A DNA stretch of 64,000 nt from NCBI RefSeq assembly GCF_035998645.1, contig NZ_DASYHL010000005.1, positions 807,487-871,486 of the forward strand, written 5' to 3'. Made by a program: the position numbers and the translations under genes. The notes under the pieces are model-generated. The model did not search any database. It was given only the letters and a program-made list of their open reading frames with translations, and was not told the DNA's origin. Shown in pieces: positions 43,251 through 50,502 of this stretch; the stretch's first letter is position 1, and every line of letters begins with the position of its first letter. Source of the DNA: Sphingomonas sp. Lineage in GTDB: Bacteria > Pseudomonadota > Alphaproteobacteria > Sphingomonadales > Sphingomonadaceae.

Positions 43251-44174
43251 CTAGCCCGTCAGGAAAATCTGGTAACGCCAAGAGGCGTAGGCCAGTATTT
43301 CGTTGTGGCTTTCCGAAAATAGCGCGAGCCGTTCTGCTGACACGGGGACATAAGGTTTTGGCTCGCCCCCGGAGGCCTTTGCGTCCCGCTGACCGCACCA
43401 TGGCGGTGCCGATTCGGGATCGAGCCCGAAGTGCGCCAGTATTTCGGCGTAGCGCGCGCTAAGTTGTTCGTAGCCCACTGAAATCATATTTTCTCGGGAG
43501 AGCGACGCAAAAGAATCAAGCGCCGCGCAATAGCGGTGAGTCGCTGCAATCAGCACCGGATCCGACTCGGTCGGAGTAATTATCGGCAATGAGATCAACT
43601 CCTTCAACCTGCCCGCCTGAAGATACGGCGGTGGCTTTCGGGAGAGGGATTCCAGCACAGCGCTTGGCTCTCGATGCAGGAAGATGAACCGCGCTGCAGG
43701 CATTCGATCGAGTAGATTGCGGTGGTGAAGGTGCATTTGGCTTCCGAACTTGACCACCAGGGGCGCTCCGCGTTCCTGCGCCCAGCCGCGCCAGGCGTTC
43801 AGCATCGCAAGACAGGCGCGCATCGCCACATCGGCGCTAATGCTGCCCCACATGCGATGACGAAGGATGCGGAAAAATGGTGGCTCGCTCAATACCATAG
43901 CCTGCCCACTCGCTCTGATATTGCTCGCAAGCAATGTCGAGCCGCACCGGGACACATGAAATATGGCGCTAAAGTTAGCGAAGCCATCGCTCACTTCAGG
44001 TTGGACAGAGAGCCACTCGTCGAACCCTATCATGCCAACATGTCCGGTCCTCTCCGCGACGCTCGCGCTGAAAAACGGCTGAGTCATATCGAGCAGATCG
44101 GGATCGATCAGGCGAACAACATTGTGGTGACCATAGCGCTTAAACAGATATGGCAGACGCAAATTGCTGCTCAC
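43251..44174 (-). CDS. Sulfotransferase-fold protein (RiPP tailoring candidate)
   Basis: GTGA overlap with the upstream stop; 5'-PSB-like HVSRCGSTLL, LSEPP, 3'-PB-like IFLHREPSAVLESL. Confidence 0.75.
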   Translation of the reverse strand: MSSNLRLPYLFKRYGHHNVVRLIDPDLLDMTQPFFSASVAERTGHVGMIGFDEWLSVQPEVSDGFANFSAIFHVSRCGSTLLASNIRASGQAMVLSEPPFFRILRHRMWGSISADVAMRACLAMLNAWRGWAQERGAPLVVKFGSQMHLHHRNLLDRMPAARFIFLHREPSAVLESLSRKPPPYLQAGRLKELISLPIITPTESDPVLIAATHRYCAALDSFASLSRENMISVGYEQLSARYAEILAHFGLDPESAPPWCGQRDAKASGGEPKPYVPVSAERLALFSESHNEILAYASWRYQIFLTG

Positions 44175-45076
44175 GGCGTGGCCCAGTGTGACGTGTCGGC
44201 AAGTTTTCGAACATGGCTGCTGACTGCGAAGCGACCGCCCGCGAAGTGATGTTCGGCGAGATGGGTTGGCCCGACCGCATGATAGAACCAGCTGGGAAAC
44301 ACAACTAGCCGGTTCGGGATCGCCGCTACTTTGGTAAACCAGCTGGGCGAGATTTCCTGCCTCCCGAGATCTGTGTCCAGGACCGACAATTCGCCTCCAG
44401 TAAACCGTACCGGGACCTGCGCGAAATAATAGAGCCAAGTAATAGCTCGCCCCGCGCTTGCAACAGGGCCGTGGTTGTCGGCATGAGGCTTGAAGAAGCC
44501 ACCTTCGATATGATTTGTTAGCTTAATCTCGACCCGGTCCACCTTGAACTTCGGCAGACCGAGTGCACGTTGAAATCTCTCGAGATTAGCGTCGAGGAAA
44601 TCGAGAAAATATTGGCGCTTATAAGTGAATTGCGGGTTTACGAGCGTACGCCGCTTTGCCGGATCATAAACCGCGGTTTCCGAGAATGTTCGCGCATCAA
44701 AAAACTGCGGCTCAAGATCGCAAGCGTGTCGATGCAGCGCGTTCATCTCGTCCACGGGCAGAAAATCGTCGATCACTAGAATCGGCGAAATGACGTGGTT
44801 GCCCGGCGACCGGAGGCCCGGCGGGATGACGGCCTCTGGATCGAAAGCCTCTAGTACGTCCTCCGCCCCCACCGCGTTCAGATGGTCGACAAAGGCTGCC
44901 CGCGCTGACCTTAGATCCCCACATCGCCTCAGAAGATTCGCCCGCATGAGATGGGGTTGCGCACCGGCCCTGCCCAAGGCGATGCGCGCGTCCAGCTGCT
45001 CCAGCAATGCGTGCGTGTCACTACGATTGCTCAGTCGCGTCAGCTTCTCATAATATTCCTGCGTCTGGTTCCGCAT
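44171..45076 (-). CDS. 2OG-Fe(II) oxygenase (prolyl-4-hydroxylase-like) with short N-terminal helical/TPR-like extension
   Basis: KPHADN (HxD), ITWLYYF, FTGGEL, NRLVVFPSWFYHAV, RFAVS. Confidence 0.85.
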   Translation of the reverse strand: MRNQTQEYYEKLTRLSNRSDTHALLEQLDARIALGRAGAQPHLMRANLLRRCGDLRSARAAFVDHLNAVGAEDVLEAFDPEAVIPPGLRSPGNHVISPILVIDDFLPVDEMNALHRHACDLEPQFFDARTFSETAVYDPAKRRTLVNPQFTYKRQYFLDFLDANLERFQRALGLPKFKVDRVEIKLTNHIEGGFFKPHADNHGPVASAGRAITWLYYFAQVPVRFTGGELSVLDTDLGRQEISPSWFTKVAAIPNRLVVFPSWFYHAVGPTHLAEHHFAGGRFAVSSHVRKLADTSHWATP

Positions 45077-45084
45077 CTGTGCTG

Positions 45085-45354
45085 TTAATCCGCTCGTTTC
45101 ACGAGTTTTGCAGATTGGAGCCCCGCGAAGAAATTTTTTAGATCCGCCTCACATTGTAACGAAGTTAGCGAGTATTTCTCTTGGATTATTGCGGCGATCT
45201 GATCCAACGTCCGAGCGCCATCAACAAGATCCCAAATGACGCGACCCGTCTTGTTCAGTTCGATGAAATCTCCGGTGTCTATCGACATTAAAATTTTCAT
45301 CTCGCCCGACTCAGCCATCATCACATCATCGGCATATGCGAATACGTCCTGCAT
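45085..45354 (-). CDS. PqqD-family RiPP recognition element (lasso B1/E-like)
   Basis: FIELNKTGRVIWDLVDGARTLDQIAAIIQEKY...CEADLKNFFAGL. Confidence 0.88.
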   Translation of the reverse strand: MQDVFAYADDVMMAESGEMKILMSIDTGDFIELNKTGRVIWDLVDGARTLDQIAAIIQEKYSLTSLQCEADLKNFFAGLQSAKLVKRAD

Positions 45355-45355
45355 T

Positions 45356-46285
45356 TCAGCCAACTGAGCCCCTCCTCCTTCTTTCATCAGCGATTTTCGC
45401 AATGGCGTCCTCCGCTTTGGCCACTACCTCCGCCACCGTATCGTGCGCCGCCGGGCGGGCGATCCGCCAGACCGGTACAGCGTGCGCCAAAGCAGTCCAT
45501 TTTATCAACAATCCCGGCAGCTTGGCCCGCGCGATGAACCGCTTGCGAAAGCTGTGCGCCCATAGCAGGGCAATCGCTTCGCTTACTGGCACGCGTTCCA
45601 AGGAAACCTGAGTAACGCCACGTTGCTCGAGCACGATAACGCCCGAAAGGGGGTAAGGTGTGGCAGCAAAAAGGTGCTCGGTCGGCAGAACGCGTTTCCC
45701 TTTACTGCAGCGCATTTCGGTCTTCATCGTTTGGAAATCGGGTAGCCCGACCAAAACATCGTCAGCCAATTTGGTAACGCGTGGTCCGGCGGGGATCATG
45801 AACTCCGGCGCGTCGCCTACGACGGTGACATCATCTCCCAGCGTCTCGCCGCCGTTAGCCAGCAAGTGCGCGAGAGTCGTAGACTTGCCTGCGCCGCTCC
45901 GCCCACAAATGAGGTAGGCGTGCCCGGCACGGCACAGGCTGCCTCCGTGAAGAACGACGTTGCCGCGCTGATGGTGAATGGTCGCCAAACCGGTGCCCAG
46001 CAGATGGGCAAAAATAGGAGCGTCAGGGCCCGTTGGCGCTCGCTCAAAAACGATTCTCTTGCCCTCGGTGATCAGTAGCCGACCTATCCCTGGCACTTCG
46101 ACAAGGACTTGATCGCCTGAGACCTCGTAGAGGGGGCGAACCTTCTCAGCCTGCTCGAGGGATGCTGGAACATTGCCTTCATCCACTTGCACTTGGTTTT
46201 CGCAAAACGGACTGGACAGGGCTTCGAGCCCGGGGACCGGCAAACCCGCCTGAATCGTCAAGCCCAAAACGTCATAACAATGCAT
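45356..46285 (-). CDS. HPr-kinase-like peptide kinase (lasso K type)
   Basis: VLHGGSL, Walker A GRSGAGKST, LGDDV. Confidence 0.85.
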   Translation of the reverse strand: MHCYDVLGLTIQAGLPVPGLEALSSPFCENQVQVDEGNVPASLEQAEKVRPLYEVSGDQVLVEVPGIGRLLITEGKRIVFERAPTGPDAPIFAHLLGTGLATIHHQRGNVVLHGGSLCRAGHAYLICGRSGAGKSTTLAHLLANGGETLGDDVTVVGDAPEFMIPAGPRVTKLADDVLVGLPDFQTMKTEMRCSKGKRVLPTEHLFAATPYPLSGVIVLEQRGVTQVSLERVPVSEAIALLWAHSFRKRFIARAKLPGLLIKWTALAHAVPVWRIARPAAHDTVAEVVAKAEDAIAKIADERRRRGSVG

Positions 46286-46393
46286 ATGTCATTTGACCGA
46301 ACTCGACACGCCAGTGCCCGCAACAAGCGCCATATCACCCGACGCGAAAGCTGCATCCATGCATCGACGATAGTGCGTGTGGCGGCCTTCCTA

Positions 46394-46525
46394 TCAGGAA
46401 GGGCGTCCGGTGAAATCCTCGTCTAGGTCTATGATCCCGCCGCGGATATCGTCAGTTCCGGCTACGACTGTGAAAGTCGGCGTTTCCCAAGGCATCTTTT
46501 CGTCTGGCTCGGCAGGTGTCGTCAT
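46394..46525 (-). CDS. RiPP precursor peptide, 43 aa: MTTPAEPDEKMPWETPTFTVVAGTDDIRGGIIDLDEDFTGRPS
   Basis: GGGA RBS; lies between cyclase and kinase; WxxP leader motif; Gly-rich junction with Asp/Glu at positions 7-9 of the putative core; C-terminal Ser. Confidence 0.8.
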   Translation of the reverse strand: MTTPAEPDEKMPWETPTFTVVAGTDDIRGGIIDLDEDFTGRPS

Positions 46526-46642
46526 GCTCGATTCCCGGTTTGGATCCAAGTTATTCGCAAGCTTGGCAAAAGTTGTCAATTTCCTATCAAAACCAGACGG
46601 AGATGCAATCCTCGCAAGTCCTTAACTGTGGCTGCAGCTGGC

Positions 46643-48526
46643 TTACCCGGACAGGGCGGACGCCGACTTTTGAAATTCCTGCCATAAGCAAAACTGCGCG
46701 ATACGGTGGAATTGCCTGACGCTGAGCTGACCAACGTTGCCTGCGCTCGCTGCCGACTGGCGCAATTCGTCGACCACGAAATCCATATCGACAAAATCCG
46801 CGACCGCCGGATCAGAGCGATGCCTCTCGAATAAGGCCATGAAATCGCCTGCCTCTGCAAAAAAGCGGGAAATGGCGAACGGTACAGAAGCCCAGGACTT
46901 GTCGTCGCGCATGCGCACGCGATCGGGCAACCGCCCTGACATTGCGGAACGGATGAGCGTCCGGCGCTGCCCACCGGGATGAAGCTTCAGACGATCCGGA
47001 AGTCGCAAACAGAACTCCACGAGACGCAGGTCCAGCATCGGATAGGCATACTCGAATCCAAGGGATCCAGCGCCAACGGCGCTATCCTGTGCGCGATGGC
47101 CAATATGTGGGCTGCTGATGACACTGCGCTCGCGAGAGCCGATTGTGCCCCAATAGGGACGCAACGGAAAACGCATGCGGCGCCGGGCTAGTTCGTCATC
47201 GGACAGTAGAGTGGGGCGAGTCAGGCGCGGCGCCTTTCGGCAACGGAGTTCGAACGCCCGCCGGGCGCGCCAATGTAGCAAAGTGCGGCCGACCGGAGTG
47301 CGCCAAGCGAGCCGGGCCAATGGACTGGCGACCAGTCGCGCGAGATCCTCCCACCGCGCTTCGCGCGCGAGACTTTCCACCAGTCCCGCTCCCTGGGAGG
47401 TCGCGAGCTGATCGCCGCCAAATCCCGATAGCAAAACTCTGCAATCATTCTCGCGCATCGCCTCTGCAACGCCGAGCTGCAGAGAATTGAAATCCCGTCG
47501 ATGCAATCCGCCGTGGCGCGCAATCGTGTCTGCTAGGGCAGAAACTTGAGGGACCGCACTGTTCGCAAGCCAGTAATGTTTGCCTACGGGAATTGCATCT
47601 AGAACGGCTTCAATCTCTACCCGCTCGTCGCTCAGCGGTGCATCGCCGCAGGTGGGCTCATTTAAGACGTGCGAAAGAGTGAGCATTATATCGCCCCGCG
47701 CTGCGATCACTGGCGCAGCGGTCACGGCAATACTTGTGGAATCGAGACCGCCGCTCAGTTCGCTTGCAACAGAGCCTGAAGCAGGCACGCGGCAAGCTAC
47801 AGCCTGATCGAACAGATGCCGATATTCGGCAACCGCGTCAGCGAGTGAGATAGTGTCTAACGACCCTGTAGTGGGTGGCGCCCAGATCTTGTCACGATTC
47901 TCAAAATGCGCCAGCTTTGAAATCCGCGTCGCCGGCGGAACAGCGGCAATTCCCTTGTAGGGCGTCGATCCCGAATCGGGTTTCACAATTTCCAGGAAAT
48001 CGCTGATCCACAACCTGTCTTCCGCGCGATCAACAAAGGGCAGCGCAAGCAGCGCGTCCATGGAACTGGCGAATGCGTAATAGCCTCCTCCTTCGGAGGT
48101 AAACAGGGGTCGGGTGCCCATGGCATCTCGCACAAGCTCCAGACAAGCTCGACCGGAATCCGCAACCGCCAGAGTAAATTCACCGACTAATCGCGCGGCA
48201 AAATCTTTTCCCCAGCGCTTATATGCAGCTAGGATCAGCGATGCATCGTTTCCCCGAATGCTCAACGCGTGCTGCAATTCAGCTCGATTGTGGAGCCGGC
48301 CGTCGATGACGGCACAGCTGTGGCCATCGTTGGCTGTTGCAAAGCCGCCTGGCATGTCGCGGGGTGACTGCGTGCGTTCGTGCACGCCAATGTAGCACTT
48401 GGACGCCGCAAAACGCGCTTGGTGATCGGAGGGCCACCGCCCGGCCCGCGACTCCATAGCTTCTATCCATGCTGTCGGGACAGGGTTTTGACTAAAGGAA
48501 AAGATACCAAATATGATGCTCAACAT
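46643..48526 (-). CDS. Asparagine-synthetase-like lasso cyclase (C protein)
   Basis: No N-terminal catalytic Cys (MLSIIFG); RDAMGTRPL, PP-loop SELSGGLDSTS, LLSGFGGDQ, YPMLDLRLVEF, LPDRVRMRDDK. Confidence 0.85.
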   Translation of the reverse strand: MLSIIFGIFSFSQNPVPTAWIEAMESRAGRWPSDHQARFAASKCYIGVHERTQSPRDMPGGFATANDGHSCAVIDGRLHNRAELQHALSIRGNDASLILAAYKRWGKDFAARLVGEFTLAVADSGRACLELVRDAMGTRPLFTSEGGGYYAFASSMDALLALPFVDRAEDRLWISDFLEIVKPDSGSTPYKGIAAVPPATRISKLAHFENRDKIWAPPTTGSLDTISLADAVAEYRHLFDQAVACRVPASGSVASELSGGLDSTSIAVTAAPVIAARGDIMLTLSHVLNEPTCGDAPLSDERVEIEAVLDAIPVGKHYWLANSAVPQVSALADTIARHGGLHRRDFNSLQLGVAEAMRENDCRVLLSGFGGDQLATSQGAGLVESLAREARWEDLARLVASPLARLAWRTPVGRTLLHWRARRAFELRCRKAPRLTRPTLLSDDELARRRMRFPLRPYWGTIGSRERSVISSPHIGHRAQDSAVGAGSLGFEYAYPMLDLRLVEFCLRLPDRLKLHPGGQRRTLIRSAMSGRLPDRVRMRDDKSWASVPFAISRFFAEAGDFMALFERHRSDPAVADFVDMDFVVDELRQSAASAGNVGQLSVRQFHRIAQFCLWQEFQKSASALSG

Positions 48527-49061: not shown

Positions 49062-49412
49062 TTAAAGCCGAACCCCGAACCGTCCCAGCACGATCGTCAT
49101 CCCCGCGTAGAGCAGGACCGTCAGCACGCACCCTGCGGCGAGTGCAGGCCAGAAACCGATGCCGCGCTTGAGCAACAGCGGGATCAACACGAACATCGGC
49201 AAGCTGGGAAGCACATACCAGAAGGTCGCGAGTGCGTGATCGGCCATCAGCGTTACGTCGGGTTTGTCGCGCCAGAGCCAGATCATGCCGAGGACCGAGA
49301 CCAGCGGCAGCGATGCGACCAGCGCGCCGAAGCCGGGAGAGCGGCGGGCGATTTCCGAGACCAGCGCGATGAGCACCCCGGAAATCGCCGCCTTGATCGC
49401 AAGGTAGAGCAT
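49062..49412 (-). CDS. DUF3147 family membrane protein
   Basis: KAAISG...ALVASLPLVS...TFWYVLPSLP. Confidence 0.8.
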   Translation of the reverse strand: MLYLAIKAAISGVLIALVSEIARRSPGFGALVASLPLVSVLGMIWLWRDKPDVTLMADHALATFWYVLPSLPMFVLIPLLLKRGIGFWPALAAGCVLTVLLYAGMTIVLGRFGVRL

Positions 49413-49473
49413 CGGAAGTCCTAAACCACACTGTGCGCATGCGCTGCCATCTTCAGCACTGCCCTTATTTCCT

Positions 49474-50502
49474 TCAGAACCAGGCGCGGACCCCCAGGAC
49501 GAGACTGGTCGAGTGCGTATCCTCTCCGCCCGCACGGGCGAACGACGCGGTTCGTCCGAACTTCCGCTCGTGCACGATGCCCACATAGGGCGCGAACTCG
49601 CGGGCGATTTCGTAGCGGAGCCGGACGCCGGCTTCGCCACTCGACAAGCCGGACCCGATACCGAGCGCAGGAATGTCCTGCGCCGAAAGGTCGAACTCGA
49701 TTTTCGGCTGGAGGATGAGGCGCTGGGTCAGACGCTGGTCATATTCCGCCGACGCACTGGCGCGTAGTTCGCCTTGCGTCGAAAGCGACAGATAGGCATC
49801 GACCTCGAACCAATAGGGGGCAAGTCCCTCGATACCGATCACCGCATGCGTCCGGTCAGGACCATGGCCGATCTCCTGGCGCAGGCCGCCCTGGAGATTG
49901 AAATAGGGGCCGATCGCACGCGAATAGAGTGCCTTCAGATCGACGCCCTCGATTGCTTCGCCGAAGGTGCCTTCGCCCTCAGCCTTCAGAGCGAGGCGGT
50001 TGATGTCGCCACCGAACCAGGCGTCCGTCTCGAAACGATAGCCTTCATGTCCTTTGCTAATGGTCAGTTCGGCCAGATCGATCGTCACCTTGCTGAACGT
50101 GCCGCCGCCGTGATGGCGGCGCAGGTCGTCGCGGGTCGGCTGCATCGCGTCCCGCCCCCAGACGCGGTCGGCATAGTTCGCCGCGACGGGGGCCGGTGCC
50201 GGGCTAGTGCCCGGCACCAGGTCGGTGCCGACCGCATCCTCTGCCGGTGCCGCGTCCTTGGGCGTGCAGTGACCCATTTTTGCGTGTTCGGGGGGACAAT
50301 CCGGGTCGCTGGCGGGTGGGCTTGCCGGAGCTTTGGCATCGGGCATCCGGCAATGCCCCATCGCCGCATGTTCGGGCGTGCAGGCTGACGCGGCCTGGGC
50401 ACTATCCTTGCGGGCGGCCATCGGCGGCATCGTCTGTCCGGCGGGGGCAAGACCCAGGACAGACACGAAGCCGGTCCCGGCGAGAAGCAAGCTGCCGATC
50501 AT
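49474..50502 (-). CDS. copB: Copper resistance protein B
   Basis: His/Met-rich N-terminus; WFGGDINRL, LYSRAIGPYF, GLAPYWFEV, RYEIAREFAPYVG, terminal WF. Confidence 0.92.
   Translation of the reverse strand: MIGSLLLAGTGFVSVLGLAPAGQTMPPMAARKDSAQAASACTPEHAAMGHCRMPDAKAPASPPASDPDCPPEHAKMGHCTPKDAAPAEDAVGTDLVPGTSPAPAPVAANYADRVWGRDAMQPTRDDLRRHHGGGTFSKVTIDLAELTISKGHEGYRFETDAWFGGDINRLALKAEGEGTFGEAIEGVDLKALYSRAIGPYFNLQGGLRQEIGHGPDRTHAVIGIEGLAPYWFEVDAYLSLSTQGELRASASAEYDQRLTQRLILQPKIEFDLSAQDIPALGIGSGLSSGEAGVRLRYEIAREFAPYVGIVHERKFGRTASFARAGGEDTHSTSLVLGVRAWF

Follow-up and report, generated by a model that had tools for sequence, protein, structure and literature searches.

Closest Described Systems

The lasso peptide cluster considered here lies in a 64-kb window of Sphingomonas DNA (G000:C2:807487-871486, where G000 is the 3.88-Mb source genome, C2 its contig 2, and "window" means the whole stretch analysed). 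The systems most like it are those of the kinase type, in which a precursor (A) is accompanied by a peptide kinase (K), a recognition element (B1) for peptides that are made by ribosomes and modified after translation (RiPPs), a leader peptidase (B2) and an asparagine-synthetase-like cyclase (C). They are represented in the same bacterial order by SyanA/K/B1/B2/C of Sphingobium yanoikuyae and by further Sphingomonadales precursors (Duan 2023, Supp. Fig. 14). The HKDD motif is essential in the lasso-tailoring kinases PadeK, ThcoK and SyanK (Sphingobium), which act on linear precursors and phosphorylate their C-terminal Ser (PMC9266682, PMC8498205), and the WxxP leader hardly varies between paeninodin-like precursors (PMC13381572). 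Ile or Val at position -2, next to the leader cleavage site, has been published for kinase-type lasso peptides, including those of the Sphingomonadales (PMC8498205, PMC9266682, PMC10368454).

The Bsf cluster of Bradymonas sediminis (BsfA/K/B1/B2) resembles the window's cluster in its Ile(-2) and in having a kinase aided by B1, and BsfB1/BsfB2 have been shown experimentally to remove the leader in vitro by a cut beside that Ile (Duan 2023, PMC10368454). It differs in possessing a cis B2 and the additional genes N and D, and in that BsfK targets Ser3 rather than the C-terminal Ser; the mature Bsf lasso has never been observed either. Pseudomycoidin, also of the kinase type, has been produced in E. 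coli and B. subtilis in the absence of B1 and B2 (PMC6993621), which are therefore dispensable in vivo, yet the psm cluster of Bacillus pseudomycoides encodes both. A cluster of Stanieria, consisting of C, A and K, has neither B protein (Zyubko et al. 2019), and such clusters have been suggested to be overlooked (PMC6993621); in the genome studied here, by contrast, B1 is kept in all 13 triads of B1, C and K, and only B2 is missing. Finally, the linear polyphosphorylated peptide (LPP) clusters of Bacillota (Popov et al. 2026) combine K with a discrete RiPP recognition element (RRE) and no B2, and have a [Y/W]xxP leader and phosphate-based tailoring. They differ in their SpI-like peptidase LppS, their lack of a cyclase and their YxxP leader, whereas the cluster in the window has C and a paeninodin-like WxxP leader and no SpI-like gene was found for it.

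Judged from its sequence, the window's cluster is a split-B, kinase-type lasso peptide cluster (paeninodin/Syan/Bsf-like, "phosphorylated"), and a threaded product is predicted. I place it in the phosphorylated class because its precursor ends in Ser, its K carries the His-Lys-Asp-Asp residues and its leader has the form WxxP. The features of the class that it possesses are C, B1, a [Y/W]xxPx[L/V/I/F] leader, a small residue 1, Asp/Glu at 7-9, an HKDD kinase and a C-terminal Ser on the precursor (...RPS); those that it lacks are a cis B2 and Thr at -2. With the Syan-type clusters it shares the HKDD HprK-like kinase, the Ser-ended precursor, the W..P leader, the split B1 and the Asn-synthetase-like C. 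The Syan, Novosphingobium and Erythrobacter clusters encode a B2 of their own, whereas this one has neither B2 nor exporter in cis and adds a 2-oxoglutarate (2OG) oxygenase and a sulfotransferase-like gene. Earlier papers already contain this type of cluster, the junction with Ile(-2) and the notion that kinase-type clusters may be B-less. I found no literature description of a recurrent, selected, B1-retaining triad without B2 in Sphingomonadales, nor of a genome with 13 such triads and a single split B2.

The B2 Genes of the Genome

The absence of B2 and of an exporter from the cluster is solid. An earlier note on this DNA had reported that B2, an ATP-binding cassette (ABC) exporter, an isopeptidase and a TonB receptor were all missing, and profile, BLAST and motif searches are uniformly empty. 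Searching the whole genome with PF13471 and NF033537 gave only two real matches, neither of them in the window. The window was likewise empty when searched by tblastn with both of these genomic B2 proteins and with a hidden Markov model (HMM) built from 44 B2 sequences. The motif C[LV]x[RQ][SA]...HAW, sought in six frames, is absent from the window, though it recovers both genomic B2 genes, and relaxed searches of the window (tblastn and HMM) for a decayed remnant of B2 found none. No match at E ≤ 0.01 was obtained in the 64 kb for the ABC exporter, NTP-transferase and methyltransferase of a homologous Porphyrobacter cluster, described below, or for the isopeptidase and TonB receptor of the genome's own classic cluster; nor does the window contain any of the features of a classic fused-B (astexin-type) cluster (fused B, isopeptidase, TonB-dependent receptor).

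The genome as a whole contains 13 triads in 12 loci, with 14 precursors, all of which are of the WxxP type and end in Ser. Two of the triads are on contig 1 (C1:217-222k and C1:869-873k), seven on contig 2 (C2:294-298k, C2:300-305k, C2:334-338k, C2:774-777k, C2:912-916k, C2:937-941k and the one at 43-48.5k of the window) and four on contigs 3 to 5 (C3:24-31k, C3:625-632k, C4:878-882k and C5:6-10k). Since congeners have 0-2 K genes each, the genome is a marked outlier, with an extreme expansion of kinase-type lasso clusters; genomes of other genera have at most 2 full-length K genes.

Only the contig-3 locus has a B2 in cis, and 12 of the 13 triads do without. That gene (G000:C3:30702-31214; L007 7703-8218) is the sole split B2 of the genome and encodes 171 aa with the motif CLPQA...HAW...D. 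It is monocistronic and on the opposite strand, with a TPR-2OG oxygenase gene as its divergent neighbour and a GNAT gene as its convergent one, and sits within a triad locus that holds two K genes. The genome's other B2 domain belongs to the fused B (219 aa) of the classic cluster (G000:C2:890.7-897.8k; L006 7712-14798). The classic cluster, comprising the fused B, a C, an S9-family isopeptidase and a TonB-dependent receptor, lies about 35 kb beyond the cluster in the window.

The likeliest answer to the missing peptidase, with a chance that I would put at about even, is that the one split B2 on contig 3 serves the window's cluster in trans, rather than that the chemistry is peptidase-free. 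A shared, trans-acting peptidase is favored because 12 of the 13 clusters lack B2 and a single stand-alone B2 is present elsewhere in the genome; with one peptidase gene for thirteen triads, the missing cis B2 would be an economy at the level of the genome. Supply of B2 in trans had been raised in the earlier note as one possibility among several. The whole-genome profile search did turn up B2 elsewhere (the split B2 and the fused B), making this the best supported of the options, while the action in trans is itself surmised from the genomic evidence.

If so, maturation may proceed as follows. B1 would bind the WxxPxF leader, as expected from its family, and would help K to phosphorylate the C-terminal Ser43, by analogy with SyanK, PadeK and BsfB1 (B1 boosts the kinase in the Bsf case; PMC10368454). 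The oxygenase and the sulfotransferase-like enzyme would probably modify the precursor in its linear form, in the manner of other lasso tailoring enzymes. The split B2 of contig 3 would then cut the leader in trans beside the conserved Asp-Ile-Arg, and C would join the new N-terminal Gly to the Asp or Glu at position 7-9. What was observed, as the basis of this scheme, is confined to which genes are present, their conservation and phyletic association, and the intactness of their motifs.

Should a single split B2 indeed act on 13 clusters, 14 precursors and 13 divergent RREs, it would be a naturally promiscuous leader peptidase, useful in engineering, and the genome would offer a natural test of the specificity of RRE-peptidase pairing, a question raised by the 2026 work on LPP clusters. 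A genome with 13 kinase-type clusters, as against 0-2 in congeners, would be an unusually good organism in which to address the question of a shared peptidase.

Homologous Clusters and Selection

The nearest relative of the window's cluster is found in the metagenome-assembled genome (MAG) GCA_040960375.1, whose K is 80% identical and whose layout is CopA-CopB-BV97-C-A-K-B1-Ox-ST (Ox and ST being the oxygenase and the sulfotransferase-like gene). There is no B2 within 10 kb of this locus. All six genes of the ortholog cluster are intact, at about 15% nucleotide divergence from the window's, and the identities to the ortholog at locus L009 are 85% for C, 90% for the oxygenase and 85% for the sulfotransferase-like protein. 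The ratio of nonsynonymous to synonymous substitution rates (dN/dS) against the 80%-identical ortholog is 0.17 for C, 0.40 for K, 0.20 for B1, 0.14 for the oxygenase and 0.22 for the sulfotransferase-like gene, with dS in the range of 0.31-0.58 in the same pairwise comparison. For the 43-codon precursor the ratio is 0.54, and the leader motif and DEDFTG-PS block are unchanged. Because the ortholog keeps the layout, the dN/dS values are low and the motifs of the precursor are unchanged, the B2-less layout is held by selection.

A more distant homolog, from Porphyrobacter sp. AAP60 (LJHV01000024.1, locus L011), has a K that is 45% identical, in the order A-K-B1-Ox-ST with C upstream. Its C is adjoined by genes for a methyltransferase, an NTP_transf_5 protein (N), a B2 (PF13471) and an ABC exporter (D), and these, together with a second oxygenase, are what it has beyond the window's cluster. 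Its precursor, ...WEAPELTVVATSKDIRSGAFFDDEDFTGVPS, has the same D-I-R junction (DIR↓SG, the arrow marking the cut) and the same DEDFTG..PS core. By this comparison, the cluster in the window has apparently lost the methyltransferase-N-B2-ABC arm that is still present in the more distant homolog. The Porphyrobacter B2, used as query, finds the contig-3 B2 as its sole match in the Sphingomonas genome (38% over 85 aa, E 7e-13).

A third layout is seen in three loci on metagenome contigs (L012-L014; K 39% identical), in which N and the ABC exporter are present. B2 is not detectable in them, and the precursor ends ...DEDFTGNPPPS.

The Precursor and Its Cleavage Site

The precursor in the window (46394-46525, minus strand) is 43 aa long, MTTPAEPDEKMPWETPTFTVVAGTDDIRGGIIDLDEDFTGRPS, with a WxxPxF leader (WETPTF) and a core that begins Gly-Gly, continues with D7/E8/D9 (E7/D8 in the other of the two registers considered below) and ends in Ser. 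The predicted core is either a 15-mer, GGIIDLDEDFTGRPS, or a 14-mer, GIIDLDEDFTGRPS. The calculated monoisotopic mass of the lasso would be 1572.742 for the 15-mer (1652.708 with HPO3 added and 1668.703 with a further O) and 1515.721 for the 14-mer (1595.687 with HPO3 added). Homologous precursors are called as genes of 43-48 aa at L008, L011 and L012. The corresponding segments are ...VAGTDDIRGGIIDLDEDFTGRPS in the window, ...VAGTEDIRGGVIDVDEDFTGSPS at L008, ...VATSKDIRSGAFFDDEDFTGVPS at L011 and ...VATTADIAGGAIDDDEDFTGNPPPS at L012, and the elements W-E-x-P, D-I, DEDFTG and P-S are kept among them.

Cleavage at IR↓GG would place Ile at -2 and Trp at -16, with D7/E8/D9 as possible acceptors. 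Cleavage at IRG↓G would give the canonical Trp(-17)/Pro(-14)/Phe(-12), would make the invariant second Gly residue 1, with E7/D8 as acceptors, and would put Ile at -3 and Arg or Ala at -2. The earlier note's observation that Thr(-2) is missing holds in both registers: all four homologous precursors have the Ile (DIR↓GG in the window, then DIR↓GG, DIR↓SG and DIA↓GG), and the residue at -2 is Ile or Arg/Ala, depending on the register. A third register, GTD↓DIRGG, had been put forward as restoring the Thr. I reject it, as the column with the Thr reads T/T/S/T, the conserved block is D-I-[R/A], and the core would begin with Asp1, for which no precedent is known.

It had further been proposed that the joint loss of B2 and of Thr(-2) marks a peptidase-independent branch, to be checked by whether the two co-vary. 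They do not, and the proposed branch gains no support. The Porphyrobacter AAP60 cluster combines the Ile junction with a cis B2, and at least eight of the B2-less paralogous clusters of the Sphingomonas genome allow the canonical Thr(-2) register, for example ...DTM↓NSPGGWPD, ...LTA↓TFNGGAGD, ...VTL↓SNGNNGGGD and ...ITS↓GTGTSGME. Orthologs of the last, from Novosphingobium subterraneum and a marine MAG, share its T-x↓G1...E8 junction and do bear B2. Ile(-2) is neither new nor tied to the loss of B2; the two traits are uncoupled, and the absence of B2 is scattered on the cyclase tree, as described in the next section.

B2 Across Genomes and on the Cyclase Tree

If B2 may act from a distance, its presence anywhere in a genome becomes the quantity of interest. 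Over 81 genera of the family, PF13471 was found in all 18 genomes with a full-length K and in 5 of the 63 others (Fisher 7e-14), and 6 of the 18 have B2 on a different contig from K or at a distance of over 20 kb (Fisher 4e-6). For the window's own genus, B2 occurs in 6/6 K-bearing species versus 1/10 without K. The pooled samples thus give B2 in 24 of 24 K-bearing isolate or representative genomes versus 6 of 73 K-less ones. Ten additional genomes contain B2-less triads; 8 of them have a B2 at some other place, and the 2 that do not are MAGs.

The genome G073 provides an example of separated parts. It has an A-B1-B2-C-D operon with a Ser-ended WxxP precursor, and its sole K homolog, which has neither C nor B1 close by, is 730 kb away (L015 and L016, at G073:C1:142-158k and 870-887k), which implies that parts of the system work from separate loci. 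K stands alone, without C or B1, in G071, G073 and G077, and in G071 and G077 so does B2. For this reason counts of K genes in relatives are not to be read as counts of clusters. The components of the system are evidently often dispersed yet co-inherited.

The history of B2 was followed on a maximum-likelihood tree built for 53 cyclases whose loci contain K. The cluster statistics and the tree made use of 72 related loci, collected by an alignment search for K orthologs (P-loop pattern), which are distant relatives with at most 31% identity. The absence of a cis B2 requires 14 changes on the tree, of which well-supported branches force at least 10, and it is clustered no more strongly than when the labels are shuffled. 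Every B2-less cyclase of the Sphingomonas genome has near relatives with B2. A case in point is a locus from a marine alphaproteobacterial MAG (L046), which is orthologous, although rearranged, to the double triad at G000:C2:294-304k, with cyclases about 80% identical (tblastx); the marine locus contains three B2-like open reading frames (ORFs), one of them a truncated duplicate, while the syntenic Sphingomonas locus contains none. Since B2 absence is scattered in this way, I take the loss of B2 to track the host (mostly Sphingomonadales) and not the lineage of the pathway.

Alternative Explanations

Several observations weigh against a B2 shared in trans. Identities among the 13 B1 proteins reach only about 20-30%, and RRE-peptidase pairs can be selective (PMC13381572), so that it has to be assumed that one B2 docks with every one of them. 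The substrate that belongs to the contig-3 B2 has Thr(-2), whereas the precursor in the window has Ile there (or Arg, if the other register applies). PF13471 gave no match over the cut-off in two MAGs, of unestablished completeness, whose triads lack B2. Part of the association between K and B2 stems from clusters that have B2 in cis. Lastly, an exporter for the product was not identified.

The main rival view is that maturation is independent of B2: a housekeeping or otherwise unrelated protease would cut the leader and C would cyclise the core, B1 being kept for K and the tailoring enzymes. I consider this unlikely, though it draws on real precedents, namely the production of pseudomycoidin without either B protein, the B-less cluster of Stanieria and the second role of B1 in stimulating the kinase (PMC10368454). 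It also accords with the lack of a cis B2 in 12 of 13 triads here and in many Sphingomonadales loci, and with the two triad-bearing MAGs just mentioned. Set against it are the presence of B2 somewhere in each of the 24 K-bearing genomes and the retention of Thr(-2), a residue recognised by B2, in most of the precursors of B2-less clusters. No protease family was found to be shared among the triad loci (the other families that at least three of them have in common are sulfotransferases, recognised by a motif in their sequence, and oxygenases of 2OG or cupin-like type), and a search for an SpI-like (SipW-type) peptidase such as LppS (TIGR02228) yielded no match above the cut-off genome-wide and none in the vicinity of a triad. 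The broader proposition, that a set of kinase-type lasso pathways in Sphingomonadales (12 of 13 here) matures with no dedicated B2, by means of a non-B2 protease or of B1, K and C themselves, does not seem likely either. Were no B2 needed, the single laboratory observation on pseudomycoidin would extend to a natural clade, B2 would be no universal requirement for lasso peptides in nature, and mining anchored on B2 would have systematically missed a group. Lasso mining usually demands B2 (PF13471) beside the cyclase, so that clusters with only B1, C and K are in any case likely to be under-counted.

Two further explanations dispense with a lasso altogether, and I regard each as quite improbable. 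In one, the product is a linear phosphorylated (hydroxylated, sulfated) peptide similar to those of LPP clusters, its leader kept or trimmed, and C is inactive or performs some other chemistry, such as amidation. Linear polyphosphorylated peptides from systems of K and an RRE do exist (PMC13381572), the C in the window scores under the cut-off of NF033535, and there is no cis B2. But C is under the strongest constraint of any large gene (dN/dS 0.17) and has an intact PP-loop, SGGLDS, the core keeps its invariant Gly and the block of DED acceptors at 6-9, and the marks of LPP clusters (no cyclase, an SpI-type peptidase, a YxxP leader) do not apply to the window. As for the amidation suggested in the earlier note, a glutamine-dependent form of it is itself unlikely because C lacks Cys2, the N-terminal nucleophile. 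In the other explanation, very doubtful as well, the cluster is a silent, non-producing remnant of a larger one that was truncated on insertion beside the cop genes. It is true that the left arm of the Porphyrobacter cluster (methyltransferase-N-B2-D) is missing exactly where the cop and BV97 genes abut C, and that a dip in guanine-plus-cytosine (GC) content suggests horizontal acquisition. However, a second genome, diverged by about 15% in nucleotides, has the same layout, with intact ORFs, dN/dS of 0.14-0.40 and a conserved precursor, which contradicts the decay that had been suggested, and eleven more B2-less triads with intact precursors would also have to be remnants. A B2 shared in trans therefore remains the reading that I favor.

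Genes and Surroundings of the Cluster

The six genes of the cluster are arranged head to tail on the minus strand of the window, at 43251-48526, in the order C-A-K-B1-oxygenase-sulfotransferase-like. C (46643-48526), the asparagine-synthetase-like lasso cyclase, is 627 aa long and matches PF00733 (99.8 bits, 3e-28) as well as GATase_7 and GATase_6. Its top NCBIfam model is NF033535 (lasso peptide isopeptide bond-forming cyclase), at 238 bits, which is under the clade-specific cut-off of 525. The PP-loop is at residue 258, and the N-terminus reads MLSII. K (45356-46285, minus strand), an HprK-like peptide kinase of 309 aa with a P-loop, gives weak matches to Hpr_kinase_C, HprK_rel_A and ScmC; its residues H113, K134, D151 and D152 are unchanged in all 13 paralogs, and its homologs bear PF27840. 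Searches of PDB sequences with C and K returned no lasso-specific structure.

B1 (45085-45387, minus strand), a PqqD-type RRE, has 100 aa counted from an ATG that was chosen by homology to L009, and matches PF05402 at 58.7 bits (cut-off 23.4) and lasso_PqqD_Bac at 48 bits. As the earlier note had seen, it is followed directly by the gene for the 2OG-Fe(II) oxygenase (44171-45076, minus strand; 301 aa; PF13640, 41.6 bits, cut-off 27), a putative tailoring hydroxylase, which begins 9 nt past the end of B1 and has paralogs in 3 further triad loci of the genome. The last gene (43251-44174, minus strand) encodes a sulfotransferase-like protein of 307 aa, whose function is tentative: its matches to Stf0 and Sulfotransfer_3 are weak and below the cut-offs, and an SRCGST motif is present. 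Its GTG start overlaps the stop of the oxygenase gene by 4 nt, and a paralog of it is located in the contig-3 cluster.

A short hairpin, CCTTCC-TGATA-GGAAGG, with a 6-bp stem read from the sequence, spans the stop codon of the precursor (46386-46402, minus strand). It was not picked up by a terminator scan, and may be an element that stabilises or attenuates the precursor transcript.

The cluster is flanked on one side by copAB and a gene for a small membrane protein and on the other by genes for an HxlR-type regulator and an azoreductase. The membrane protein (49062-49640, minus strand), which has four helices and is a member of the BV97_02767 family (PF28289), is encoded between copB and C, as it also is in the 80%-identical ortholog locus, and may belong with either the cop genes or the peptide cluster. 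The GC content is 0.57-0.58 at 44000-48000 of the window and 0.62-0.72 in its surroundings. The junction on the left, or cop, side is common to the window and the MAG ortholog, and that on the right is not; this pattern and the dip in GC together suggest that the cluster is horizontally acquired cargo.

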